This document shows, one piece after another, positions 1,387 to 55,268 of a stretch of 64,000 nt of DNA. Location: positions 99,130-163,129 of the forward strand of contig JACPZD010000024.1 of the NCBI GenBank assembly GCA_016195665.1, read 5' to 3'. Positions within the stretch are counted from its first letter, which is position 1. Each line of letters begins with the position of its first letter. The translations under genes were made by a program, and so were the position numbers. This DNA comes from Gammaproteobacteria bacterium (GTDB taxonomy: Bacteria; Pseudomonadota; Gammaproteobacteria; SURF-13). Under the pieces are notes generated by a model. That model saw nothing but the letters and a program-made list of their open reading frames with translations. It searched no databases and had not been told where the DNA came from.

Positions 1387-2928
1387 CTAGTACACCGCGG
1401 TTTTCTTGAACTCTTCGATGGCGAGCGCCAGGGCCTTCTCCGCCTCGGCGTCGAGATCCTTGGTGGTGGTGATCTTGTCTACGATCGCGGCGTGTTTGCT
1501 CTTCATGTAGGCATGCAGCGCGGACTCAAAGGCCAGCGCCTTCTTCACTTCCACGTCGTCAAAATAGCCCTTGTTCACCGCGAACAGCGTGACCGCCATT
1601 TGCGCCACGCTCATCGGCGCGTACTGCGGCTGCTTCATCAGTTCGGTCACCATGCGGCCGCGCTCCAACTGCTTGCGCGTGGCCTCGTCCAGGTCCGAGG
1701 CGAACTGCGCGAAGGCGGCCAGTTCGCGGTACTGCGCCAGCGCCAGACGCACACCGCCGCCCAGTTTCTTGATGACCTTGGTCTGCGCCGCGCCGCCTAC
1801 GCGCGACACCGAGATACCGGCGTTGATCGCGGGCCGGATGCCGGCGTTGAACAAATCGGTTTCCAGGAAGATCTGGCCGTCGGTGATCGAGATTACGTTG
1901 GTCGGCACGAACGCGGACACGTCGCCCGCCTGGGTCTCGATGATGGGCAGCGCGGTGAGCGAGCCGGTCTTGCCCTTGACCTTGCCGCCGGTCATCTTCT
2001 CCACGTACTCGGCGTTCACGCGCGCGGCGCGCTCCAACAGGCGCGAGTGCAGATAGAACACGTCGCCCGGATACGCCTCGCGGCCCGGCGGACGGCGCAG
2101 CAGCAGCGACACCTGGCGGTAGGCCCAGGCCTGCTTGGTGAGGTCATCGTATACGATCAGCGCATCCTGGCCGCGGTCGCGGAAGTATTCGCCCATGGTG
2201 CAGCCGGAATAGGCGGCGATGTACTGCATCGCGGCGGACTCCGAGGCGGTGGCGGCTACGACAATGGTATACGCCATCGCGCCGTACTCTTCCAGCTTGC
2301 GCACCACGTTGGCGACGGTCGAGGCCTTCTGCCCGATCGCCACGTAGATGCAAATCATGTCCTGGCCTTTCTGGTTGATGATGGTGTCTACCGCCACCGC
2401 CGTCTTGCCGGTTTGGCGGTCGCCGATGATCAGCTCGCGCTGACCGCGGCCGATGGGCACCATCGAGTCTATGGACTTGAGGCCGGTCTGCACCGGCTGA
2501 CTCACCGACTGGCGCGCGATGACGCCGGGCGCGATTTTTTCAATCGGCGCCGTCTCGGTAGCGGCGATCTGCCCCTTGCCGTCTATCGGCTGGCCGAGCG
2601 AGTTCACCACACGGCCGATCAGCGCCTCGCCCACCGGCACTTCCAGAATGCGGCCGGTGCACTTGACCGGGTCGCCCTCGCGGATGTGCTCGTATTCGCC
2701 CAGCACCACCGCGCCGACCGAGTCGCGCTCCAGGTTGAGCGCGAGGCCAAAGGTGTTGCCGGGGAACTCCAGCATCTCGCCCTGCATCGCGTCGGACAGA
2801 CCGTGCACGCGGGTGATGCCGTCGGTGACGGACACCACCGTACCCTCGGTGCGCGCCTGGCTGACGATCTCGAAACTCTCGATGCGCTGTTTTATAAGGT
2901 TGCTGATTTCTGAAGGGTTGAGTTGCAT
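1387..2928 (-). CDS. atpA: F1F0 ATP synthase alpha subunit
   Basis: 513-aa [20 protein letters not shown]...; P-loop GDRQTGKT; end-to-end alpha-subunit similarity. Confidence 0.97.
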
Positions 2929-2969
2929 GATGCCTTCCTTTAATGAAATTTCAATGGGTGCATGCGGGT

Positions 2970-3506
2970 TTACTGGGCCAGCGCGTTCGCAAGCTTCGCC
3001 AGTTGGCCGCGCGCCGTGCCGTCTATGACGCTGTCGCCGGCGCGGATGAGTACACCGCCCAGCAGCGAGTTATCTATATGCGCAGTGATGCTCACGGTGC
3101 GCCCGTAGCGTGCTTGCAGGGTGGCGGCGATCTTGGCCTGCTGTTGTTCGCTGAGCGGATAGGCCGAGATCACCTGCGCTTCCAGGGCGCCCTCCGCGAC
3201 GGCGCGTTCGGCCTCGAACAAGGCGGCGATTTCGGGCAGCAGGCCGAGGCGGCGATTGGCGATCAGGACTTGTATGAAATTGCGCCCCGTGGGATCGAGG
3301 GGTCCGCCCACCAGTTCCAGGAACAGTTTGGCCAATTGTTCCTTGCCCCAGCGGGGATCGCCGAGCAGGTTCTGTATCTGCGGATCGGCCGCCACAGCCG
3401 CAGCCAGGGCCAGCAGCTCCGACCACGCCTTGAGGTTGCCCTGCGCCTTGGCCAATTCAAACACGGCCTGGGCATAGGGGCGGGCAATGGTGGTTTTTTC
3501 GGCCAT
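2970..3506 (-). CDS. atpH: F1F0 ATP synthase delta subunit
   Basis: 178 aa, [19 protein letters not shown]...; expected size and operon position. Confidence 0.9.
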
Positions 3507-4357: not shown

Positions 4358-5666
<1,309 letters not shown>

Positions 5667-5670
<4 letters not shown>

Positions 5671-5876
5671 TGTTTCGACTCCGGCCTGCTCAGCAGCTTA
5701 TAAGCCTTCAGAAGACCGCCCACAAACCCCAGGCAGCCAAGGATGAACATGAAGAGGGGGAGGGTATCCAACCATACATCGAGGCCATATCCCAATATCA
5801 GACCGGCCAGCACCATGGAGGAGAGTATGCTGCCAACTCCAATCAGCGCCAACCCGGTTCCCCTGGCCTTGTTCAC
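5667..5876 (-). CDS. AtpZ/ATPase_gene1-like small membrane protein; start uncertain (GTG at 5876, or ATG at 5972/5990 overlapping the permease gene)
   Basis: The C-terminal 65 aa (...GTGLALIGVGSILSSMVLAGLILGYGLDVWLDTLPLFMFILGCLGFVGGLLKAYKLL) match the PF09527-type putative F0F1-ATPase subunit pattern (two TM helices, GY.LD motif). The 4-nt overlap with atpI suggests co-transcription. Confidence 0.4.
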
Positions 5877-5931
5877 AGCGCGCGCATTATAAAGGTTGGG
5901 AGGGCACGGCGTCAACGAAATACGGAGAATT

Positions 5932-6708
5932 TCAGGCCAGCAGACGGCGGCGCAGCAGTATACAGGCCACATACAGCCCCGCCGCGCCATACAGTATCAG
6001 GACGCCCAGATGGAGGAGAGGATGGGTGAGGGCCTGTCCGGTCATGAGCGGGCGCACCAACTCCACGGCGTGGGTGAGGGGCAATACCTGCGCCCCCCAT
6101 CGCACGGCCTTGGGCATGGCCTCCAAGGGGAAAAAGGTGCCGCTTAACAGAAACATCGGGGTAATGACGAGCGTGAAGTAATACACGAAAAAGTCATAAC
6201 TCTTGGCGAACGCGGTGACGCACAGCGCGAGCGCGGCAAACGACGTACCCGCCAGCAGCACCAGCGGCAGCACCCATAGCGCGCGCAGATCGTGCACCAG
6301 CCCCAGCCCCGCCGCCACCGCGACGATGGGCGCGACCGACAGCAGGCTCTTGGCGCCGGCCCAAACTATCTCGCCCAACGCGATGTCATCCACGATGAGC
6401 GGTGTGGCAAGCATGCCGCCCCAGGTTTGCTGGTGAGCCATGCGCGTGTAGGCGGAGAACAGGGCTTCAAAGGTCGCGGTGTTCATGGCGCTCGCGCACA
6501 CCAAACCTGAGGCGAGAAACACGCTGTAGGGCATGCCCTGCATCTCGCCGACAAACGCGCCGAGCCCGAAGCCGAGCGCGAACAGGTAGAGCAGCGGCTC
6601 GATGAAGTTACCGAGCATGGCGGGGCCGAGCAGCTTGCGCCACACCAGAAAATTGCGCCGCCAGACATGCAGGAAGCGCAGACTCATGGCGGGTAAGGGG
6701 TGGCTCAT
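5932..6708 (-). CDS. ABC-2 type transporter permease (NodJ/YadH-like)
   Basis: 259 aa from the internal Met MSHPLPAMSLRFLHVWRRNF... The N-terminal 132 aa of the listed 390-aa ORF is a low-complexity Arg/Pro artefact that overlaps the upstream ATPase gene. Six-TM ABC-2 permease features. Confidence 0.8.
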   Translation of the reverse strand: MSHPLPAMSLRFLHVWRRNFLVWRKLLGPAMLGNFIEPLLYLFALGFGLGAFVGEMQGMPYSVFLASGLVCASAMNTATFEALFSAYTRMAHQQTWGGMLATPLIVDDIALGEIVWAGAKSLLSVAPIVAVAAGLGLVHDLRALWVLPLVLLAGTSFAALALCVTAFAKSYDFFVYYFTLVITPMFLLSGTFFPLEAMPKAVRWGAQVLPLTHAVELVRPLMTGQALTHPLLHLGVLILYGAAGLYVACILLRRRLLA

Positions 6709-13163: not shown

Positions 13164-13775
13164 TTATGTAGCTCTTGGCGTCTTTGCGTCTTGGCGTGAA
13201 ATCCTTAGAAAGTTCGCCAATAAATCGTGTCCATATTGGGTCAGTATGGATTCAGGGTGAAACTGAACGCCTTCGACGTTGAGCGTCTTGTGACGCACAC
13301 CCATGATCTCGTCCATCTTGCCTTGCGCGTCTTGCGTCCACGCGGTGACCTCCAGACAGTCCGGCAACGTTTCCTTTTCAATCACCAGCGAGTGATAGCG
13401 TGTCGCCTCGAACGGACTCGGCAAACCCTTGAAGACACCCTTGCCCGTGTGATAGATCAATGAGGTCTTGCCGTGCATCAATTCGCGCGCGTGCATGATC
13501 TTGCCACCGAACGCCTGGCCGATGCTCTGGTGGCCGAGGCACACGCCGAGCAGCGGTATTTTTCCAGCGAATTCCTTTATCGTATCCACCGACACACCCG
13601 CCTCGTCCGGCGTGCACGGCCCAGGCGAGATGACGATGTGCGCGGGCGTGAGTTTTTTGATTTCGGCGAGCGTGATCTGATCGTTGCGAAACACGCGCAC
13701 GTCAGCGCCCAGCTCATCCAGGTACTGCACCAGGTTGTAGGTGAAGGAGTCGTAGTTGTCTATCATCAGGAGCAT
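13164..13775 (-). CDS. trpG: anthranilate synthase component II (glutamine amidotransferase)
   Basis: Internal start [19 protein letters not shown]...; catalytic GVCLGHQ and HPES motifs. The listed ORF carries a 34-aa spurious N-extension. 10-nt overlap with trpE. Confidence 0.9.
13165..13215. repeat. partial family-A half-element (TCTTGGCGTCTTTGCGTCTTGGCG)
   Basis: trpD-trpG spacer; matches one arm of the family-A core. Confidence 0.5.
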
Positions 13776-15325
13776 GGTGTTACCTCCGGCACCGTGACAG
13801 GGGTGACATCGAGGCCTCTGGATGCCGTCACCGCTGCGCTCACCAGGGCGCGCGCCTTGCTCATGGTCTCTTCCCATTCCTGACGCGGCACCGAATCCGC
13901 GACGATGCCCGCGCCCGCCTGCACGTGCAGCATGCCGTCTTTGAGGACGGCGGTGCGGATCGCAATCGCGGTGTCCATGTTGCCGTTCCAGCCGAGATAT
14001 CCCACCGCGCCGGAATATATACCGCGCTTCACCGGTTCCAGTTCGTCAATGATTTCCATGGCACGGATTTTTGGCGCACCGCTCACCGTGCCTGCCGGAA
14101 AAGTAGCACGCAAGGCGTCCAACGCCGTCATGCCCTTTTTTAAGCGCCCCGCGACGTTGGAGACGATGTGCATGACATGTGAATAACGCTCGATGATCAT
14201 TTTCTCCGTAAGCTTCACGCTGCCGGTCTCGGCGACACGCCCCACGTCGTTGCGCCCCAAGTCTATCAACATCAAATGTTCGGCGCGCTCTTTCGGATCG
14301 GCGAGCAGCTCCTGCTCCAGCGCGCGGTCCTCCTCTTCGGTACCACCGCGCCTGCGCGTCCCGGCGATAGGGCGTACGGTAATCACGCCGTCTTCCAGGC
14401 GCGTCAAGATCTCCGGCGAGGAACCGACCACATGAAAATCGCTGAGATCCAGATAAAACATATAAGGCGACGGGTTCAGCGCGCGCAGCGCGCGGTAAAA
14501 ATTCAACGCGCTGCCTGCATACGGCGCAGTGAGGCGCTGCGACAACATCACCTGCATGATGTCGCCTTCCACGATGTAATGCTTGACGCGCGCGACGGCT
14601 TGTTCAAAACCCTGTTGCGTGAAGCCGGACACGAAATCCTCTTCGCGTAGGGTATGCACGGTGTCATGCGGATGCGGTGTAGCATGCTGCAATCGCTCGA
14701 CGAGTTCGTCGAGCCTGGCCTGCGCCTTGTTCCAGGCATCTTCCAACGCGGGATTGACGTGGATCACCAGATACAGTTTGCCGCTCAAATTATCGAACAC
14801 CACCACTTCATCCGATACCATGAGCAGAATGTCCGGCGTGCCGAGCGCGTCGGGTTTGGTGCACTTGGCCAGGCGCGGCTCGATGTAGCGCACCGTACCG
14901 TAACCGAAGTAACCGACCAGCCCCCCGGTGAAGCGCGGCAGTCCCGCCGCGGGCGCTATTTTGTAGCGCGCCTGAAACTGCTCGATCCAGGTCAGCGGAT
15001 CGTCGCTCTGCATGCGCTCAATAATCGCACCGTCTTTTTCCACCGTGATGTCATGACCGGAGACGCGCATGATGGTGCGGCAGGGGAGTCCGATGATGGA
15101 GTAGCGCCCCCACTTTTCACCGCCCTGCACCGATTCGAATAAGTATGAATAAGGCGCGGTCGCTCCCGGCATCCTGCCTCCCGCGACACTAGTATGTCCT
15201 TGTGCGTCGTCGGCGAGTTTGAGGTAGGCACTGAGCGGCGTGTCGAGGTCGGCACAGACCTCGCGTACCAGCGGAATGCGGTTATAACCCTGGCGCGCCA
15301 GGGCGTCGAATAGTTGCGGTGTCAT
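13766..15325 (-). CDS. trpE: anthranilate synthase component I, carrying a 17-aa in-frame insertion near the N-terminus
   Basis: 519 aa; LLESVQGG-type motif ([19 protein letters not shown]) and C-terminal chorismate-binding domain. The sequence [17 protein letters not shown] interrupts the normally contiguous LKLAD-AP-YS region. Confidence 0.95.
15158..15208 (-). repeat. 51-nt in-frame coding-embedded element, copy 1 (in trpE)
   Basis: Sense strand cGACGCACAAGGACATACTAGTGTCGCGGGAGGCAGGATGCCGGGAGCGAC; translated [17 protein letters not shown]; 48/51 identical to the copies in lysA and gpmI. Confidence 0.9.
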
Positions 15326-22201: not shown

Positions 22202-22303
22202 GGGGTGAGCGGCGGGCTTAGGAACGCGAACGCCCGCACAGGGATGTGCGGGCTGGGGCTTGGGCTAGTATCCGAAGTCGCGCCATGGATGGCTGAAAAG
22301 GGG

Positions 22304-34440: not shown

Positions 34441-34896
34441 ATGGCCGCCCTGTACACCCTCAAGATTCTGACCGATTTCGCCAGCGCCCACACCCTGCGT
34501 GACTACCCCGGCGACTGCAGCCGCATGCACGGCCACAACTGGAAGGTGGAGGTCGAGGTCATCGCGCGGCACTTGGATGAGGTGGGCATGGGCTTGGATT
34601 TCAAGGTCATCAAAGAGGCGACCCGCGCACTCGCCCAACGGCTCGACCATCACTATTTGAACGACATCGAGCCGTTTGACAAGGTCAATCCGACCGCGGA
34701 AAACATAGCCGCCTATTTTTATCAGGGTCTGTCGCAGCGTCTCAATAATCCGCGCGTGCGGGTGAGCGCCGTCACGCTGTGGGAGACGGATCGCGCCTGC
34801 GTGCGTTACAGCGACGAGGCGGTCGAAGGGGAACCTCTGATTAAATCAGAGGTTCCCGCGATACAGGGATGTATTGCCATTACTCAATCGCATTAA
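34441..34896 (+). CDS. queD: 6-carboxy-5,6,7,8-tetrahydropterin synthase with a roughly 25-aa C-terminal extension encoded by a palindromic repeat
   Basis: Core CSRMHGHNWKVEVEV... and WETDRACVRY match QueD/PTPS. The tail EGEPLIKSEVPAIQGCIAITQSH is translated from a family-E palindrome (34838..34866) and the hairpin that follows. Confidence 0.85.
   Translation: MAALYTLKILTDFASAHTLRDYPGDCSRMHGHNWKVEVEVIARHLDEVGMGLDFKVIKEATRALAQRLDHHYLNDIEPFDKVNPTAENIAAYFYQGLSQRLNNPRVRVSAVTLWETDRACVRYSDEAVEGEPLIKSEVPAIQGCIAITQSH
34838..34866. repeat. family-E palindrome embedded in the 3' end of queD
   Basis: GAACCTCTGATTAAATCAGAGGTTCCC, translated in frame as ...EGEPLIKSEVPA... in the QueD tail. Confidence 0.8.
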
Positions 34897-35028: not shown

Positions 35029-35862
35029 ATGAAAATCGCAACCAAGCCGGACAATATTCTCCCCATCGCCGACGTGCAGGGAACCGCGGATACGCGCCGC
35101 ATCGCCATCAACAAGGTGGGCATCAAGGACATCCGTCACCCGGTGCGGGTGCGCGACCGCACCGGCGGCGAGCAGCACACCATCGCCAACTTCAACATGT
35201 ACGTGAACCTGCCGCACAATTTCAAGGGCACGCACATGTCGCGCTTTGTGGAGATCCTCAACAAACACGAACGCGAGATCTCGGTGGCCTCCTTCAAGGA
35301 CATGCTGCACGAAATGACCGAGCTACTGAATGCCGAATCCGGCCACATCGAGATGAGCTTCCCTTATTTTGTGAATAAGGCCGCGCCGGTGTCGGGCGTG
35401 CAGAGCCTGATGGACTACGAGGTGACGTTTACCGGCGAGGTGGTGAATAAAAAAACCGGCCTTACCATCAAGGTACAGGTGCCGGTCACCAGTTTATGCC
35501 CCTGCTCCAAGGAAATCTCCCGCTACGGCGCGCACAACCAGCGCTCGCACGTCACCGTGCAGGTGCGCATACAGGGGTTCGTCTGGATCGAAGAGCTGAT
35601 AGACATGGTCGAAAAACAGGCGTCTTGCGAGCTGTACGGCCTGCTCAAACGCCCCGATGAAAAGTACGTCACCGAACGCGCTTACGACAATCCGAAGTTT
35701 GTGGAAGACATGGTGCGCGACATCGCCGCCGTGTTCAATCAAGATGAACGGATTGAAGCCTATGTGGTGGAATCCGAGAATTTCGAATCCATCCACAACC
35801 ACTCGGCCTATGCGATGATCGAGCGGGATAAGATAGTGGAGGCGGCCGCTTTGCCGCATTAG
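35029..35862 (+). CDS. folE2: GTP cyclohydrolase FolE2 (type IB, MptA family)
   Basis: Starts [39 protein letters not shown]...; [22 protein letters not shown] metal site. The listed ORF 34954 has a 25-aa upstream extension. Confidence 0.9.
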
Positions 35863-35933
35863 CTGTCGTAGGTCGGTCAAGCCTGTCCTGGGGAAAGATG
35901 CGATAGCCCAGTCCAGTATAGAATACATAAAAG

Positions 35934-36010
35934 ACCTCACCGCGGAGGACGCGGAGAGTAAATTAAATTATCTTTGATCTTACTGCTCTGCGTCCTCTGC
36001 GGTTATATTA
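35934..36010. repeat. family-B palindromic element
   Basis: CCTCACCGCGGAGGACGCGGAGAGTAAATTAAATTATCTTTGATCTTACTGCTCTGCGTCCTCTGCGGTTATATT; between folE2 and the aspartic protease. Confidence 0.8.
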
Positions 36011-36017
36011 AATTAAT

Positions 36018-36659
36018 CTAATTCTTCTTTCGTAATTCCATTATTTTTTCTTTGTGCTGAATCTCCAGTTTTCCCAGGAACGACATACCCAGCAACACCT
36101 CGGTGGGGCTGTCGCCGGCGATGACCGCAGCGTCAACATCGCGTAACTCGATCTCACCGACCTTGACCTTGGCGAGTTTGATCATAAAAGCCTCCGCCAT
36201 GCCTGAGGCGGTGTTCACCGCCGTGCGCTGGCCGTCGAGACGGTAGCTTAGCCCCAGCCGTTTAGCCTCGTTGGCGTTCATGGCGATGAAGGTCGCGCCG
36301 GTATCCAACAGAAAATTCACCGGCAGGCCGTTGATGCTGCCGACCGTGGTGTACATGCCCGCCGGATTGGGATAAACCTGAACGGCGGTGTGTTTGGACG
36401 CGGCGAGTCGAGTGTTGACCTGGCTGCCCAGCGGATAGCTGCGGCGCTTGCCTTCCACCTCCAGCACCGCGCCGTTGCTGCTGGCGGATATGAGGGTGAC
36501 GCCCTCCGGGCTGGTTTGTCCCGGCGCGAGGCTGCGTTGTTTGCCGTTGATGCTGACCACGGCCTTGTCCTTGAACAGCCCCAGCATCATGATGTCACCC
36601 GCCGTCGCCGGCAGGCTGCTGAGCGCAGCCAGTATTCCCGCTATCTTGATAAATCGCAT
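36018..36659 (-). CDS. retropepsin-like (clan AA, TIGR02281-type) aspartic protease with signal peptide
   Basis: 213 aa; signal MRFIKIAGILAALSSLPATA; catalytic LLDTGATFIAM motif. Confidence 0.75.
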   Translation of the reverse strand: MRFIKIAGILAALSSLPATAGDIMMLGLFKDKAVVSINGKQRSLAPGQTSPEGVTLISASSNGAVLEVEGKRRSYPLGSQVNTRLAASKHTAVQVYPNPAGMYTTVGSINGLPVNFLLDTGATFIAMNANEAKRLGLSYRLDGQRTAVNTASGMAEAFMIKLAKVKVGEIELRDVDAAVIAGDSPTEVLLGMSFLGKLEIQHKEKIMELRKKN

Positions 36660-39135: not shown

Positions 39136-39270
39136 TTAAGGAAACTCTGAAAAATATATCGCCAACCGCCAAGGCGCCAAGGTCACCAAGAAAAAAGGCT
39201 TGAATTTGTAAAGAAAAGTCTTGGCGTTCTTGGCGTCTTGGCGGTTCAACATGATCAGAGCTTCCTTAAG
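39136..39270. mobile_element. family-A MITE-like element with perfect CTTAAGGAA.CTCTGA / TCAGAGCTTCCTTAAG termini
   Basis: Between lptM and lysA; CTTAAG ends read like target-site or TIR boundaries. Confidence 0.85.
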
Positions 39271-39304: not shown

Positions 39305-40600
39305 ATGCAACCCTTCACCTATCGCAATAACCGGCTGTTCGCCGAGGACGTGGATCTTGGAGTCCTCGCCGATCTCTACGGCACGCCGTGTTATGTCTAT
39401 TCGCGCGCGGCGATGGAGGAACGCTGGCGCGCCTTCGATCAGGCGTTTGCCGGGTGCAGGCATCTGGTCTGCTACGCCGTCAAGGCCAACTCCAATCTCG
39501 CCGTGCTCAACCTGCTGGCGCGGCTGGGTTCGGGCTTTGATATCGTCTCGGGCGGAGAGCTGGAGCGTGTCCTGGCTGCGGGGGGCGATCCCGGCAAGGT
39601 GATTTTTTCAGGTGTCGGCAAGACCGGCATGGAGATGCAGCGTGCCCTGGAGGTTGGCATTCTGTGTTTCAACGTCGAGTCCGAGGCCGAACTGGAATGT
39701 CTCAATGAGGTCGCGGGACGCCTGGGACGGCGCGCGCCGGTCTCGCTGCGCGTGAATCCCGATATTGACGCGCGCACTCATCCTTATATCTCCACCGGCC
39801 TCGCCGGAAACAAGTTCGGGATAGACATTACCGCCGCCCATGAGGTCTACCGGCGGGCTGCGGCGATGCAGCACATCGAGGTGCTGGGCGTGGACTGCCA
39901 TATCGGTTCGCAGTTGACCGAAGTCGAGCCTTTTGTGGAGGCTCTTGAGCGGGTATTGTCCCTGGTGGACAGGCTAGAGGATGATGGCATCGCACTCCGC
40001 CATCTGGATCTCGGCGGCGGACTGGGCATCCGGTATTCGGACGAGACGCCGCTGGAGCCCGCGCAATACGCCGCGGCATTGCTTCCGCAACTCAGGAACC
40101 GGGATTATCAAATTTTGATTGAGCCCGGACGCGCCATCGCCGGCAACGCCGGGATCTTGTTGACCCGGGTCGAATATATAAAGCATAGCCGGCACAAGAA
40201 CTTCGTGATCGTGGACGCCGCCACGAACGACCTCATACGGCCCGCCCTGTATAATGCCTACCATGCCATCCGGCCGGTGCAGGAGCGTACCGGCGACGTA
40301 CAGGGACATACTAGTGTCGCGGGAGGCAGGACGCCGGGAGCGACCGAGGCGCAGATCTATGATGTGGTCGGCCCGGTGTGCGAAAGCGGCGATTTTTTGG
40401 GCCGGGATCGCAGCTTGAACGTGCAACGCAACGATCTTCTGGCGATCTTTTCGGCGGGCGCCTATGGTATGAGCATGAGCTCCAATTACAACACCCGCCC
40501 GCGCGCGGCGGAGGTGATCGTGGACGGCGCCCGGCACCACCTTGTGCGCGCACGCGAGACGGTGGTGGAACTGTTTGCGGGCGAAAAACTGTTGCCGTAG
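39305..40600 (+). CDS. lysA: diaminopimelate decarboxylase, carrying the 17-aa in-frame insertion
   Basis: 431 aa; PLP site CYAVKANSN, C-terminal VVGPVCESGDFL; insertion [17 protein letters not shown] just before the conserved YDVVGP. Confidence 0.95.
   Translation: MQPFTYRNNRLFAEDVDLGVLADLYGTPCYVYSRAAMEERWRAFDQAFAGCRHLVCYAVKANSNLAVLNLLARLGSGFDIVSGGELERVLAAGGDPGKVIFSGVGKTGMEMQRALEVGILCFNVESEAELECLNEVAGRLGRRAPVSLRVNPDIDARTHPYISTGLAGNKFGIDITAAHEVYRRAAAMQHIEVLGVDCHIGSQLTEVEPFVEALERVLSLVDRLEDDGIALRHLDLGGGLGIRYSDETPLEPAQYAAALLPQLRNRDYQILIEPGRAIAGNAGILLTRVEYIKHSRHKNFVIVDAATNDLIRPALYNAYHAIRPVQERTGDVQGHTSVAGGRTPGATEAQIYDVVGPVCESGDFLGRDRSLNVQRNDLLAIFSAGAYGMSMSSNYNTRPRAAEVIVDGARHHLVRARETVVELFAGEKLLP
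40294..40344 (+). repeat. 51-nt in-frame coding-embedded element, copy 2 (in lysA)
   Basis: cGACGTACAGGGACATACTAGTGTCGCGGGAGGCAGGACGCCGGGAGCGAC; translated [17 protein letters not shown]. Confidence 0.9.
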
Positions 40601-41311: not shown

Positions 41312-42652
41312 ATGACGATGCTGACACCTAAGGAAATCGTCCAGGAACTGGACAAACACATCATCGGCCAGGGCGCGGCGAAGCGTGCGGTGGCGATTGC
41401 GCTCCGCAACCGCTGGCGGCGCGGGCAGGTCAGCGAGGACTTGCGCAATGAGATCACGCCCAAGAATATTCTGATGATCGGTCCGACCGGCGTGGGCAAG
41501 ACCGAGGTCGCGCGCCGCCTCGCCAAGCTGGCCAGCGCGCCGTTCATCAAGGTTGAGGCCACCAAATTCACTGAGGTGGGTTACGTGGGGCGTGATGTGG
41601 AATCCATCATCCGCGACCTGCTGGACACCGCCATCAAGATGACGCGCGAGGAAGAAATGAAAAAGGTGCGGCACCGCGCCGAGGAGAGCGCCGAGGAGCG
41701 CATCCTGGATATCCTGCTGCGTCCCGCACGCCAGCCGGCCTTTGTTCCGTCCGATGCGGCGGTGGTTGCGGAAGAGTCGTCTACGCGCCAGACCTTTCGC
41801 AAAAAACTGCGCGAAGGCGAATTCGATGAGCGTGAGATCGAGGTCGAACTCAGCGCCGTTCCCATTGGCGTGGAGATCATGGCGCCGCCCGGCATGGAGG
41901 AGATGACCAGTCAGTTGCAGGGGATGTTTCAAAATCTTGCCGGCAGCCGCACCCGTACCCGCAAGCTGCGCGTCAAGGAGGCTTTTAAATTGCTGACCGA
42001 TGAAGCGGCAGCCAAGCTCATAGATGAAGAGGCCCTCAAGACCCGCGCCATACAAAACGTCGAGCAGAACGGCATCGTATTCATAGACGAGATAGACAAG
42101 ATCACCTCGCGATCGGAACGTATGGGAGCGGATGTCTCGCGCGAAGGCGTGCAGCGCGATCTGTTGCCGCTGGTGGAAGGGAGTACGGTGTCCACCAAGT
42201 ACGGCATGGTCAAGACCGATCATATTCTGTTCATCGCATCGGGCGCGTTTCATCTTTCCAAGCCCTCCGATCTCATCCCCGAATTGCAGGGCCGCCTGCC
42301 GATACGTGTCGAACTGGATGCGCTGGGCGCGCAGGATTTTGTGCGTATTTTGACCGAGCCGGACGCCTCACTTACTGAGCAATACAGCGCGCTGTTGGCG
42401 ACCGAGGGTGTACACTTGAGTTTCACGCCGGACGGCATTTCCCGCCTCGCCGAGATCGCCTGGCAGGTCAACGAGCGCACCGAGAACATCGGCGCACGCC
42501 GGCTGCATACGGTGATGGAGCGTCTGCTGGAGACGATCTCCTTCGGTGCGTCAGAGCAAGCGGGTCAGAGCTTCGAGATCAACGCCGCATACGTGGACGA
42601 ACATCTCCGCGAACTGGCAGAGAATGAGGATTTGAGCAGGTATATACTTTGA
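41312..42652 (+). CDS. hslU: ATP-dependent protease ATPase subunit HslU
   Basis: [20 protein letters not shown]..., Walker [16 protein letters not shown]. Confidence 0.95.
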
Positions 42653-42917
42653 AGGCTGATACAAGAGGAAAGATACAAGATACAAGAGGGATAAAGTTTG
42701 TACTTTTCTCTTGTATCTTTTCTCTTGTATCTGTACCTATGCGCCCCACTGAAATCAAGCTGCACCAAAAATCGCGGATCTGAGCAGGTATATACTTTGA
42801 AGGCTGATACAAGAGGAAAGATACAAGATACAAGAGGGATAAAGTTTTGTACTTTTCTCTTGTATCTTTTCTCTTGTATCTGTATCTATGCGTCCCACTG
42901 AAATTAAACTGCATCAA
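42640..42917 (+). repeat. roughly 138-bp tandem duplication (two units, 42640..42777 and 42778..42917) spanning the hslU 3' end, a GATACAA-heptamer hairpin, and the 5' end of the DUF971 gene
   Basis: Unit sequence TGAGCAGGTATATACTTTGAAGGCTGATACAAGAGGAAAGATACAAGATACAAGAGGGATAAAGTTTGTACTTTTCTCTTGTATCTTTTCTCTTGTATCTGTA.CTATGCG.CCCACTGAAAT.AA.CTGCA.CAAAAATCGCG repeats with about 5 mismatches and 1 indel. The first unit carries a truncated copy [14 protein letters not shown] (42739..42783). Confidence 0.9.
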
Positions 42918-53477: not shown

Positions 53478-53525
53478 GAGAACGCTTATCTTGTATCTTG
53501 TATCTTTTCCCTTGTATCTGGTTCT
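53468..53525. repeat. family-C GATACAA/TTGTATC heptamer-array hairpin
   Basis: GATACAAGCATGAGAACGCTTATCTTGTATCTTGTATCTTTTCCCTTGTATCTGG between gpmI and envC. Confidence 0.75.
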
Positions 53526-55122
53526 AATGAACAAACTCCACCAGGCTATCGCCGCTCATCTCGGAGGGGATGTCCAAGTTCATAAGGTGCAGCAGGGTCG
53601 GGGCGACATCGGCCAGGGTCCCGCCTTTGGTCATCTTGGCGGGCCGGCCGACGTAGATCAACGGCACCGGGTTGGTGGTATGCGCGGTGTGCGCCTGACC
53701 GGTGCCCTCGCCGATGAGCTGCTCCGCGTTGCCGTGATCGGCGGTGACGAGCAACTCGCCGCCGACCTTTTTTAGGGCCTCGACGATGCGACCGAGGCAG
53801 GCGTCTATGGTTTCAATCGCCTTAACGGTGGCGTCAAGGTTGCCGGTATGTCCGACCATGTCCGGGTTGGCGAAGTTGCAGATGACGGTATCGTAGGTGC
53901 GGCTCTCGATGGCCTGCACCAACTGGTCGGTGAGTTGCACCGCGCTCATCTGCGGCTGCAAGTCGTAGGTAGCGACGTGCGGCGAGGGGATCAGGATGCG
54001 ATCTTCGCCCACAAACGGCTGCTCCTCTCCGCCGTTAAAAAAGAAGGTCACGTGCGCGTATTTTTCGGTCTCGGCGATGCGCAGTTGACGTAAACCCTGT
54101 TCCGCGACATAGGCCCCGAAGACGTTTTTCAGGCGCTCCGGCGGAAAGGCCACCGGCACGGGGAAGTCCTCGCTGTAATCGGTGAGGGTGACAAAGCCGC
54201 CGAGCTTGGGCATGGCCTCGCGCCTGAAACCGGTGAAGTTCGGCTCGATGAAGGCGCGCGTGATCTGGCGCGCACGGTCGGAGCGGAAATTCATGAAGAT
54301 CACCACATCGCCGTCCTCGATGCGCACCGGTTGTTGAGTCGCTCCCGGCATCCTGCCTCCCGCGACACTAGTACTTCCCTGTACGTCGCCCTGCGGAACG
54401 ATGGCGGTGGCCTTGACGAACTCGTCGGACTCGCCGCGCGCATAGGCCATCTCGAGGGCCTGCATGGCGGTCTCGGCGCGAAACTCCGCCTTTCCCAGCG
54501 TGATGAGGTCGTAGGCCGCTTGAATACGCGGCCAGCGGTGATCGCGGTCCATCGCGTAATAGCGGCCTATGATCGAGGCGAAGCGGCCCTTGCCCAAGGC
54601 ATCGAACTTATCCTGCATGGCCTTGATGGAAGCCGTCGCGCTCTTTGGCGAGGTATCGCGGCCGTCCAAAAAGGCGTGCAGATACACGCGCGCCGCGCTG
54701 CGCCGCGCCGCCAATTCGGCCATGGTGTGGATGTGCTCTTCATGGCTGTGCACGCCGCCGTCGGACAGCAGCCCCAGCATGTGCACCGCCTTGTTATTGG
54801 CGACGGCCTGATCCACGGCCTTGGTCAACGCCTCGTTGGTGAAGAACGAACCGGTCTTGATGGCGCGGCTGATGCGGCTGAATTCCTGATAGACGATGCG
54901 TCCCGCGCCGAGATTGAGGTGCCCCACCTCGGAATTGCCCATCTGATCGGCGGGCAGGCCGACATCCGTCCCCGAGGTGCTGATGAGCGTGTGCGGGTAA
55001 TTTTTCCAAAGGCCGTCCCACACCGGTTTGCGGGCGGCGAGTATGGCGTTGCCTACCGGATTTTCGCTATAGCCCCAGCCATCCAGAACGATGAGCACCA
55101 TGGGGCGATGTGTCAAAGGCAT
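53524..55122 (-). CDS. gpmI: 2,3-bisphosphoglycerate-independent phosphoglycerate mutase, carrying the 17-aa in-frame insertion
   Basis: Start [20 protein letters not shown]; catalytic Ser region [12 protein letters not shown]; insertion [17 protein letters not shown] within ...ATAIVPQG|...|[10 protein letters not shown]. Confidence 0.95.
54338..54388 (-). repeat. 51-nt in-frame coding-embedded element, copy 3 (in gpmI)
   Basis: Sense strand cGACGTACAGGGAAGTACTAGTGTCGCGGGAGGCAGGATGCCGGGAGCGAC; translated [17 protein letters not shown]. Confidence 0.9.
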
Positions 55123-55268
55123 GGATTTAATCCTGCACACGGCCGAGTGTTGGCTGGTTCCGGACAACCGGGGAAACGCAAAGACAATGGCATGAAAGGC
55201 GTTATAACTATAAAATAGGCGTTTATAAGCAAATTATACAATTTTCTTCCCTATTCGGTATACAGCGC

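Follow-up and report, generated by a model that had tools for sequence, protein, structure and literature searches.

Three genes in a 64,000-nt stretch of gammaproteobacterial DNA (contig JACPZD010000024.1 of assembly GCA_016195665.1; the whole stretch is hereafter called the window) carry near-identical 51-nt segments, which are probably copies of a non-autonomous mobile DNA element, one that may be moved in trans by an enzyme of the HUH/Y1 type. That the segments are a mobile mini-element with the insertion rules described below is very likely, while the assignment of the mobilising enzyme to the HUH/Y1 type is tentative. The copies apparently belong to a widespread family of tiny mobile elements, of which we found no description, residing mostly within genes of environmental Gammaproteobacteria.

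The window copies and their empty sites

The 51-nt unit, which runs from CGAC to GCGAC, lies at 15159..15209 on the minus strand within trpE (CGACGCACAAGGACATACTAGTGTCGCGGGAGGCAGGATGCCGGGAGCGAC), at 40294..40344 on the plus strand within lysA, and at 54338..54388 on the minus strand within gpmI. Pfam and PDB searches verified the hosts as genes for anthranilate synthase component I (trpE; 13766..15325, minus strand, 519 aa), diaminopimelate decarboxylase (lysA; 39305..40600, plus strand, 431 aa) and cofactor-independent phosphoglycerate mutase (gpmI; 53524..55167, minus strand). The open reading frame (ORF) of gpmI is listed from a TTG at 55167, and an ATG at 55122 is the likelier start; an exact protein look-up of the window TrpE returned no recorded entry. 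The in-frame copies in these genes had been noticed in an earlier reading made from the letters alone (the sequence-only reading), which placed the trpE copy one nucleotide off, at 15158-15208, since its interval was codon-aligned. That reading had put identity at 48 or more of 51 positions, which holds for trpE-lysA and lysA-gpmI (48/51 each) but not for trpE-gpmI (47/51). A 50-mer consensus searched with up to two mismatches gave exactly three matches in the window and none in 100 dinucleotide-preserving shuffles of it. The flanks of the three copies are unrelated and nucleotide identity is restricted to the 51 nt, so the copies are more alike than their surroundings.

All three copies have the predicted translation D[A/V]QG[H/S]TSVAGGR[M/T]PGAT, as had been read before. 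Alignment with solved homologues leaves a gap of exactly 17 aa in TrpE (against 7bvd) and LysA (against 3n2b), in agreement with the 17 added codons that had been proposed; for GpmI the gap against 5vpu is ~18 aa. In an AlphaFold model of LysA (predicted template modelling score 0.84), residues 331-346 form a coil with predicted local distance difference test values below 50, lying between strands 322-324 and 350-355. The LysA insert is thus modelled in a manner consistent with a tolerated, disordered surface loop.

Loci from other genomes, plasmids and metagenomes are designated here by L-numbers. The 51-nt segments are insertions and not an ancestral motif, because exact 51-nt empty sites occur in near-identical relatives. 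In lysA, L077-L080 (96-97% nucleotide identity to the window) lack exactly 51 nt, the empty junction reading ACCGG^CGAGGCG (the caret marks the insertion point) and the filled one ACCGG[unit]CGAGGCG, and in the protein collection the nearest LysA homologues have 414 aa, that is, 431 minus 17. In trpE, L082 (90% nucleotide identity) and L084 likewise lack exactly 51 nt, with the empty site GCCGA^CGCGCC. The sequence-only reading had allowed that all orthologues might turn out to carry the segment; the empty relatives, some at lysA and others at trpE, dispose of that prospect.

Other relatives are occupied. The more distant L081 (87%) has a diverged copy at the identical site in lysA, the trpE site of L083 (83%) also holds a diverged copy, and in gpmI L069 is occupied at the same site with flanks 96% identical. 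A gene for a haloacid dehalogenase (HAD) phosphatase contains a 69-nt variant in L084 that is missing from L082, L083 and the window (empty site CACCGG^CGACATC), and both occupied and empty states were found inside a ~200-bp MITE (a miniature transposable element with inverted repeats). At the same site, then, the nearest relatives may be empty and more distant ones filled, in the trpE case with the same rare subtype. This patchy presence could stem from seamless excision, allelic recombination or repeated insertion. Near one of these trp loci, L083 12150-12731 holds a 65-aa PD-(D/E)XK_3 fragment and ~580 nt between trpG and trpD, in contrast to L082, where the two genes are adjacent, ~60 nt apart.

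The junctions define a simple target. Among 86 flank-distinct sites the right-flank consensus was C at +1 (71/86), G at +2 (58/86) and A at +3 (49/86), so that the unit is placed directly 5' of CGA(C/G), or at TCG^ on the other strand. In lysA this CGA (40345..40347, plus strand) lies directly 3' of the unit and occurs once in the empty site. Where an empty counterpart exists, at lysA, trpE, the HAD gene and MITE site 1, all four junctions read L^CG(A), and a fifth junction, CAAC in L035, was deduced from the MITE consensus. Exactly 51 or 69 nt are gained at these junctions, with microhomology of only the 2-3 nt CG(A). The precise presence/absence polymorphism that had been proposed as a check was therefore found, and the target-site duplications sought with it were not: none is visible at sites with an empty counterpart. 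A model with a 3-nt target duplication, which fits lysA and the host MITE, fails at trpE and was dropped in favour of 51 nt inserted 5' of CG(A). The unit has no terminal inverted repeats (left end CGACGTAC, right end GGAGCGAC); its termini are direct CGAC repeats.

The left flank shows a weaker C-Y-K-S preference, in part because some units (6/84 sites) went into relatives lying in the opposite orientation, within the loop of hairpin 2 at GCATCCTG^CGCC. Nesting also involves a second, 48-nt family, described below as family B, which was inserted in the apical loops of main units at CA^GG(G)AC. Head-to-tail tandem arrays have a period of 51 and the junction GCGAC-CGAC, an arrangement to be expected if the ^CGAC of an existing copy makes a good target. 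The ~200-bp MITE occurs in L002, L032, L035, L043, L052, L054, L058, L061 and L064 (e.g., L052 ~2800-3110), has the terminal inverted repeats GGGCACCTCTAAAAAT.../...ATTTTTAGAGGTGCCC, and has 51-nt units nested in it that belong to two subfamilies and are oppositely oriented, with filled and empty states at two positions. The window also contains three intergenic palindromic modules (39142-39257, 35832-36025 and 42646-42880, the last tandemly duplicated) that are missing from L077, which is 95-97% identical. These share an architecture in which short direct repeats are followed by an AT-rich loop and then by the repeats in inverse form, differ in sequence (repeat types CCAAGG, CGCGGAG and GATACAAGA), and are unrelated to the 51-nt element.

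Distribution, reading frame and fold of the family

In a collection of species-representative genomes an exact 35-mer from the unit was found at 75 loci in ~30 metagenome-assembled genomes (MAGs), and allowing mismatches gave 94 copies at ~70 independent sites. Together with the precise empty sites, these numbers bear out the earlier suggestion of a mobile mini-element, dispersed and able to colonise coding sequence; they also supply a count across many genomes, tabulated by frame, orientation and coding status, of the kind that had been proposed with it. Carriers of the 35-mer are nearly all uncultured Gammaproteobacteria, including Acidiferrobacterales, Rhodanobacter, a Cellvibrionaceae MAG and many unclassified genomes, and the exact 35-mer is common to many genera. 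A hidden Markov model search of the loci revealed diverged subfamilies, every one of them 51 nt long, and metagenomes yielded further variants. Host genes elsewhere, putatively identified from their translations, include dnaE, glnE, cusA, an AsmA-like gene, a cheA-like kinase gene with four copies in both orientations, and a pyruvate:ferredoxin oxidoreductase (PFOR) gene (nifJ) with three; among Pfam-annotated matches, ccoQ also bears the peptide.

The plasmids searched contained one real copy, a diverged unit in the primase gene of an 11-kb Lonsdalea populi plasmid (L076 3001-3052; NZ_CP072857.1 3584-3635), which is antisense to the gene and is read as VAPAHPAPATLGHPCPA; homologous primases (~40% identity) are ~16 aa shorter across this stretch. 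Two subfamily patterns found no match in viral contigs, a phage collection gave just one 27-nt match at chance level, and E. coli genomes held no copies. That the family was not one already recognised was upheld: Rfam returned no family for the window at gathering thresholds or for the lysA copy at permissive thresholds, and literature searched by exact DNA and peptide strings contained nothing matching. A profile of the peptide in frame F1, the frame of the window copies, retrieved only short proteins (spurious ORFs and CcoQ) from a set of 5.8 billion proteins, and so provides no census of host proteins.

Of the ~70 independent sites, 50 are coding, lying in ORFs with coding periodicity of third-position GC content (GC3), and ~20 are non-coding. 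No genic copy shifts the frame or introduces a stop. Across the family, units occur in each of the four stop-free frames, in either orientation and also between genes, which removes the case for regarding a common frame and orientation as intrinsic to the element. The frame spectrum of the coding sites resembled that expected from the codon phase of CGAC and GTCG, assuming insertion by motif only and purging of the two stop-containing frames: observed and expected counts were 23 and 24.1 for F1, 3 and 4.7 for F2, 13 and 16.0 for R2, and 11 and 5.3 for R0 (chi-square p = 0.057). In 50 GC3-supported window ORFs, CGAC begins at codon position 3 (NNC-GAC) in 220/280 cases (79%), and GTCG begins at codon position 1 in 146/202. 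The window copies share a frame because CGAC falls mostly in the NNC-GAC phase, which favours the reading D-V-Q-G-x-T-S-V-A-G-G-R-x-P-G-A-T. The preferred insertion register that had been offered as one explanation was thus right in spirit, the register arising from the CGA(C/G) target and the codon phase in which it occurs. Since other frames and orientations are used elsewhere, selection for this particular peptide, the other explanation offered, is not needed to account for the window.

Two further arguments of the sequence-only reading lost their weight. Given the frame spectrum of the family, all three window copies would fall in F1 with a probability of ~0.10-0.11, and 17 codons at 67% GC, the GC content of the unit, are expected by chance to have ~4.0 stop-free frames of six; four open frames as an adaptation was accordingly rejected. 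The element shows some depletion from genes rather than any attraction to them, and is far less excluded than ordinary repetitive extragenic palindromic (REP) sequences. In genes it is predicted to be read through as 17 added residues. With a length that is a multiple of three and four stop-free frames, most genic insertions would do little more than add those residues, and they would persist where the addition forms a tolerated surface loop.

The consensus unit consists of the head CGAC, a first hairpin (GTNC-AGGGAY-GN'AC), the linker TAGT and a second hairpin (GTCGC-GGGA-GGC-AGGAY-GCC-GGGA-GCGAC). The two hairpins are different and in direct order, and have near-identical apical loops (AGGGAT and AGGAT), a conserved similarity that suggests one protein binding two like hairpins. 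In the lysA copy, hairpin 1 (40298..40311, plus strand) has a 4-bp stem pairing unit positions 5-8 with 15-18 around the loop AGGGAC, and hairpin 2 (40316..40344, plus strand) has the outer stem GTCGC/GCGAC, the internal loop GGGA/GGGA, the inner stem GGC/GCC and the loop AGGAC. Hairpin 1 is intact in gpmI (GTAC-AGGGAA-GTAC) and degraded in trpE (GCAC..ATAC, two mismatches).

Covariation provides strong evidence for this fold. Across 51 distinct units, pairing holds in 94% of the helix cells, six pairs are doubly changed, and 42 cells are compensatory, with compensation in all three helices. Pairing and covariation as high as observed arose in none of 500 shuffles, and the signal was lost when the partners were slid against each other. 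In hairpin 1, pair 7:16 is AU in 26 units, GC in 13 and CG in 9, and pair 6:17 is UA in 37, CG in 8 and GC in 2. The outer stem of hairpin 2 occurs as GTCGC/GCGAC, GCCGC/GCGGC, GCCGT/ACGGC, CCCGC/GCGGG and ACCGC/GCGGT, and the inner stem as GGC/GCC, CGC/GCG, GAC/GTC, TGC/GCA and GCC/GGC, some of the compensatory variants coming from metagenomes. As single-stranded DNA the two strands fold equally well (-10.4 and -10.1 kcal/mol, z ~-3.5) and all subfamilies fold alike, so the internal dyad symmetry seen at the outset is real.

Variation within the family leaves its length in steps of three, the classes seen being 48, 51 and 69 nt. In one subfamily hairpin 1 is a base shorter and hairpin 2 a base longer, for a total that is still 51. 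The head is CGAC in 69/86 units and otherwise TGAC, CAAC or CGCC, and the linker ahead of hairpin 2 is TAGT, CAGT, CAAT or AAGT. The 48-nt family B (L026 ~3380-3430; L034 ~1550-1600), with the structure CGAC TCC AGGGAT GGA GGAGGTAG A RYCGC GTCGGGAACA GCGRY CGA, has its left module, CGAC and a hairpin with the loop AGGGAT, in common with the main family; its second half is a GTAG-headed, REP-type hairpin that shows a compensatory stem change of its own. In the 69-nt variant (L066, L067, L074, L010, L028 and L084, the last at 756-824), hairpin 1 is interrupted by an 18-nt module, AGCGATAGCGAAGGGTTC, which is itself repeated in L074. The L084 copy adds 23 aa to the HAD phosphatase.

Hairpins related in appearance were also observed outside complete units. 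An intergenic stretch of the window (22232-22253 and 22276-22292) contains GCCCGCAC-AGGGAT-GTGCGGGC, an 8-bp stem with the hairpin 1 loop, followed by GTCGC GCC-ATGGAT-GGC; this could represent either a solo hairpin with an AGGGAT loop or a longer relative that has degenerated. Comparable solo AGGGAT hairpins stand beside units in L008, L015 and L088. At window positions 34838-34874, a hairpin GGAACCTCTGATTAAATCAGAGGTTCC followed by ATAC-AGGGAT-GTAT lies at the 3' end of the ORF 34441..34896. L090 3100-3330 (and similarly L085 and L087) has a left module, CGACGTGCAGGGATGCACTAGT, lacking a normal hairpin 2, ~70 nt downstream of tRNA-Gln; it adjoins a fragment (TGGCAGGGGACC..GGATTCGAACC) that looks like a tRNA 3' end in reverse complement, for which neither Rfam nor ARAGORN gave a call.

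Mode of movement and rival explanations

The proposed mechanism is that hairpins folded on single-stranded DNA are recognised by an enzyme that catalyses movement in trans, the likeliest kind being an HUH/Y1 transposase of the type found in IS200/IS605 elements and among REP-associated tyrosine transposases (RAYTs). Viewed from the complementary strand, the element is positioned 3' of NTCG and has GTCG as its own terminus. IS608 offers a parallel geometry, sitting 3' of TTAC and ending in TCAA. A target in the left flank, a cleavage site at the right end and the absence of duplication are characteristic of the IS200/IS605 group (PMC6006769). Seamless excision by such an enzyme would account for the patchy presence of copies among close relatives.

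Several observations weigh against this explanation, in the first place those that concern the enzyme. An HUH/Y1 motif scan found no transposase in the window or adjoining any copy in 91 loci, the ORFs around intergenic copies included no partner transposase, and ~0.6 Mb of loci contained no cognate flanked RAYT. A metagenome scan for the left module without hairpin 2 yielded no autonomous element, only variants and the left module near tRNA-Gln. The sole Y1/RAYT-like gene, at L046 5300-5995 on the minus strand, is in a genome that also carries the 51-nt family, but it is flanked by its own GTAG-type REP, AAAAGGGGACGCTACCCTTTT (5213-6054; three tandem copies and one inverted), which is unrelated to the 51-nt family. 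IS200/IS605 elements show an orientation bias relative to replication, reflecting the lagging-strand template, and the orientation of the 51-nt units matched the sign of local GC skew no better than chance (33 vs 29 loci, p = 0.8), 8-kb skew being a weak proxy. Stem mismatches of the GT and AC kinds are balanced (7 vs 10), and therefore the folding or acting strand cannot be named.

A second group of adverse observations concerns conservation at orthologous filled sites. In the two pairs that were not ascertained through the 35-mer, the elements agree at 45/51 and 46/51 positions and the surrounding third codon positions at 76% and 64%. L029/L055 and L042/L062 have flanks that are just 71-78% identical and intact 35-mer cores, and the L042 and L062 copies, between flanks 72-78% identical, differ solely by one compensatory base pair. 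Elements at orthologous sites in L012/L033, and in the window compared with L081 and L083, are also better kept than the third codon positions around them. A model of purely decaying fossils does not predict this excess conservation, which gene conversion among copies, selection in situ or re-insertion could each yield. It is possible, and we put it forward as a less secure proposal, that the family represents a new lineage of hairpin transposon derivatives, adapted to genes, held at lengths that are multiples of three, spread horizontally across gammaproteobacterial orders, and actively retained where it sits, whether through homing or re-insertion, through gene conversion or through selection; if so maintained, orthologous copies would for that reason outlast the synonymous divergence of their host genes.

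The same conservation supports a rival explanation, in which the unit is a functional nucleic-acid motif, a protein binding site or an uptake-type signal, that is kept by the host and whose mobility is secondary or extinct. REP sequences and the bacterial interspersed mosaic elements (BIMEs) built from them bind gyrase and integration host factor, and a motif of this kind would explain why orthologous copies outlast neutral divergence, why 35-mers stay intact between diverged flanks, and why the exact 35-mer is common to many genera. However, the trpE and lysA copies of the window have broken hairpin 1 stems, close relatives manage without copies, and the use of both orientations and all open frames, together with nesting, resembles selfish spread. 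We know of no candidate binding protein for the 51-nt element, and consider this explanation unlikely.

Somewhat harder to credit is movement by a tyrosine or serine recombinase with site specificity, of an integron-, Xer- or IS110/IS607-like kind, acting on the CGA core that the junction GCGAC^CGAC shares with the target. Such an enzyme fits the lack of target duplication, the short shared core, the tandem arrays and the precise loss, and folding as a single strand is also how integron attC sites work. A 51-bp double-stranded circle, however, is too stiff to form, the unit has neither attC R/L boxes nor a dif-like sequence, and typical attachment sites are far fewer and far less degenerate than the targets used here. 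No recombinase was found near chromosomal copies, and the annotated xerC ~2 kb from the plasmid copy has no evident connection with it.

Two other explanations seem to us very unlikely, and to a similar degree. A classical MITE, derived by deletion from an insertion sequence with a DDE transposase and having terminal inverted repeats and a target-site duplication, would share with the 51-nt unit its small size, its repetition, its lack of coding capacity and its polymorphic insertion; it is contradicted by the junctions, where the ends are direct (CGAC...CGAC) and not inverted, and where no duplication extends past the 2-3 nt CG(A) microhomology, the 3-nt version failing at trpE as noted above. 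An element acting at the RNA level, whether by regulating or processing mRNA, by ribosomal bypass of the kind seen in T4 gene 60 and yeast mitochondrial byps, or by spreading through reverse transcription, would agree with the covarying helices, and 50-nt bypass elements exist. But the unit is antisense to the host gene in 24/50 independent coding sites (~48%) and intergenic in 20/70 independent sites (~29%), it has no match in Rfam, and its genic copies are in frame and stop-free, which is unnecessary for an element that is bypassed or spliced. Finally, an ancestral or convergent peptide motif, under protein-level selection for a Gly/Pro/Ser loop, would explain the same peptide in three window enzymes but has next to no probability, being refuted by the empty sites of near-identical relatives, by nucleotide identity limited to 51 nt, and by the reading of the same DNA in three other frames, and its non-coding occurrence, elsewhere.

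Relation to known repeats and significance

The likeness to Rickettsia palindromic elements (RPEs) that had been remarked on proved to be one of analogous behaviour and not of family membership. As described in the accounts cited here, RPEs are ~100-150 bp long, AT-rich, confined to Rickettsia and in some cases CGTC-tagged (Ogata et al. 2000 via PMC10969869, PMC3733652). Like the 51-nt family, they are described as palindromic selfish repeats found in frame in unrelated housekeeping genes, where they encode a fold-compatible peptide, and also in non-coding DNA (PMC10969869, PMC3733652); in those accounts, as here, no mobilising enzyme is known. In-frame insertion in unrelated functional genes, with a predicted surface-loop peptide, is thus common to both, and size, composition and host are not: the present unit has 51 nt, is GC-rich, and is built of two direct hairpins with a common loop motif, it uses a ^CGA target without duplication, and its hosts are many free-living Gammaproteobacteria. 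These features set it apart from the RPE families as described, and Rfam returned no hit linking it to them in sequence.

REP sequences and their paired form, the REP doublets forming hairpins (REPINs), resemble the family in being short GC-rich hairpins recognised as folded single strands, in their high copy number, their clusters and tandems and their occasional intragenic location, and in stem covariation that reflects protein recognition (PMC3733652, PMC3116915, PMC3479197). They differ in having a GTAG or CGTC head where the 51-nt unit has CGAC, and a single imperfect palindrome of 20-40 nt or an inverted pair (REPIN/BIME) where it has two direct hairpins. REPs are also mostly extragenic and lineage-specific, whereas ~70% (50/70) of the sites of the 51-nt family are genic and the same sequence recurs across many genera.

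The closest agreement at the junctions is with IS200/IS605 elements and palindrome-associated transposable elements (PATEs), which similarly have no terminal inverted repeats, no target-site duplication, and hairpins at or near both ends (PMC6006769, PMC3119063), and in which a one-sided, fixed 3-4-nt motif resembles the terminal tetranucleotide of the element, as it does here. The distances from end to hairpin are much shorter in the 51-nt unit (0-9 nt and 4 nt), the loci showed no tnpA partner, and the 8-kb fragments gave no strand bias by GC skew. Intragenic MITEs, such as the enterobacterial repetitive intergenic consensus (ERIC), Coxiella QMITE1 and the Anabaena MITEs, are small repeats that also make in-frame fusions or insertions (PMC10969869, PMC5896051), but they have terminal inverted repeats and target duplications, measure 100-300 bp and are in frame only occasionally; the 51-nt unit has neither terminal inverted repeats nor a duplication of fixed length. 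The boxes of integron attC sites (R''-L''...L'-R', core GTTRRRY) have no counterpart either, as the unit consensus contains no GTT core and no RYYYAAC box. The element behaves like RPEs and intragenic REPs, and its junctions are those of hairpin transposons of the IS200/IS605 type.

To our knowledge, selfish DNA inserted in frame in essential genes has had essentially one textbook case, the RPEs of Rickettsia, in the reduced genome of an intracellular bacterium. The same phenomenon is now seen in free-living, GC-rich environmental Gammaproteobacteria, and here the clean empty and filled alleles, the defined ^CGA target, the fold proven by covariation, and the nesting and tandem arrays make the question of movement directly testable; oligonucleotide substrates and screens for co-occurring candidate enzymes can be designed from the data. 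The relevance of the family extends to annotation, as gene callers will produce spurious small "hypothetical proteins" across intergenic copies, and to protein evolution, where a 17-residue loop is predicted to have been gained and lost in enzymes such as DnaE, TrpE, LysA, GpmI, PFOR and GlnE.

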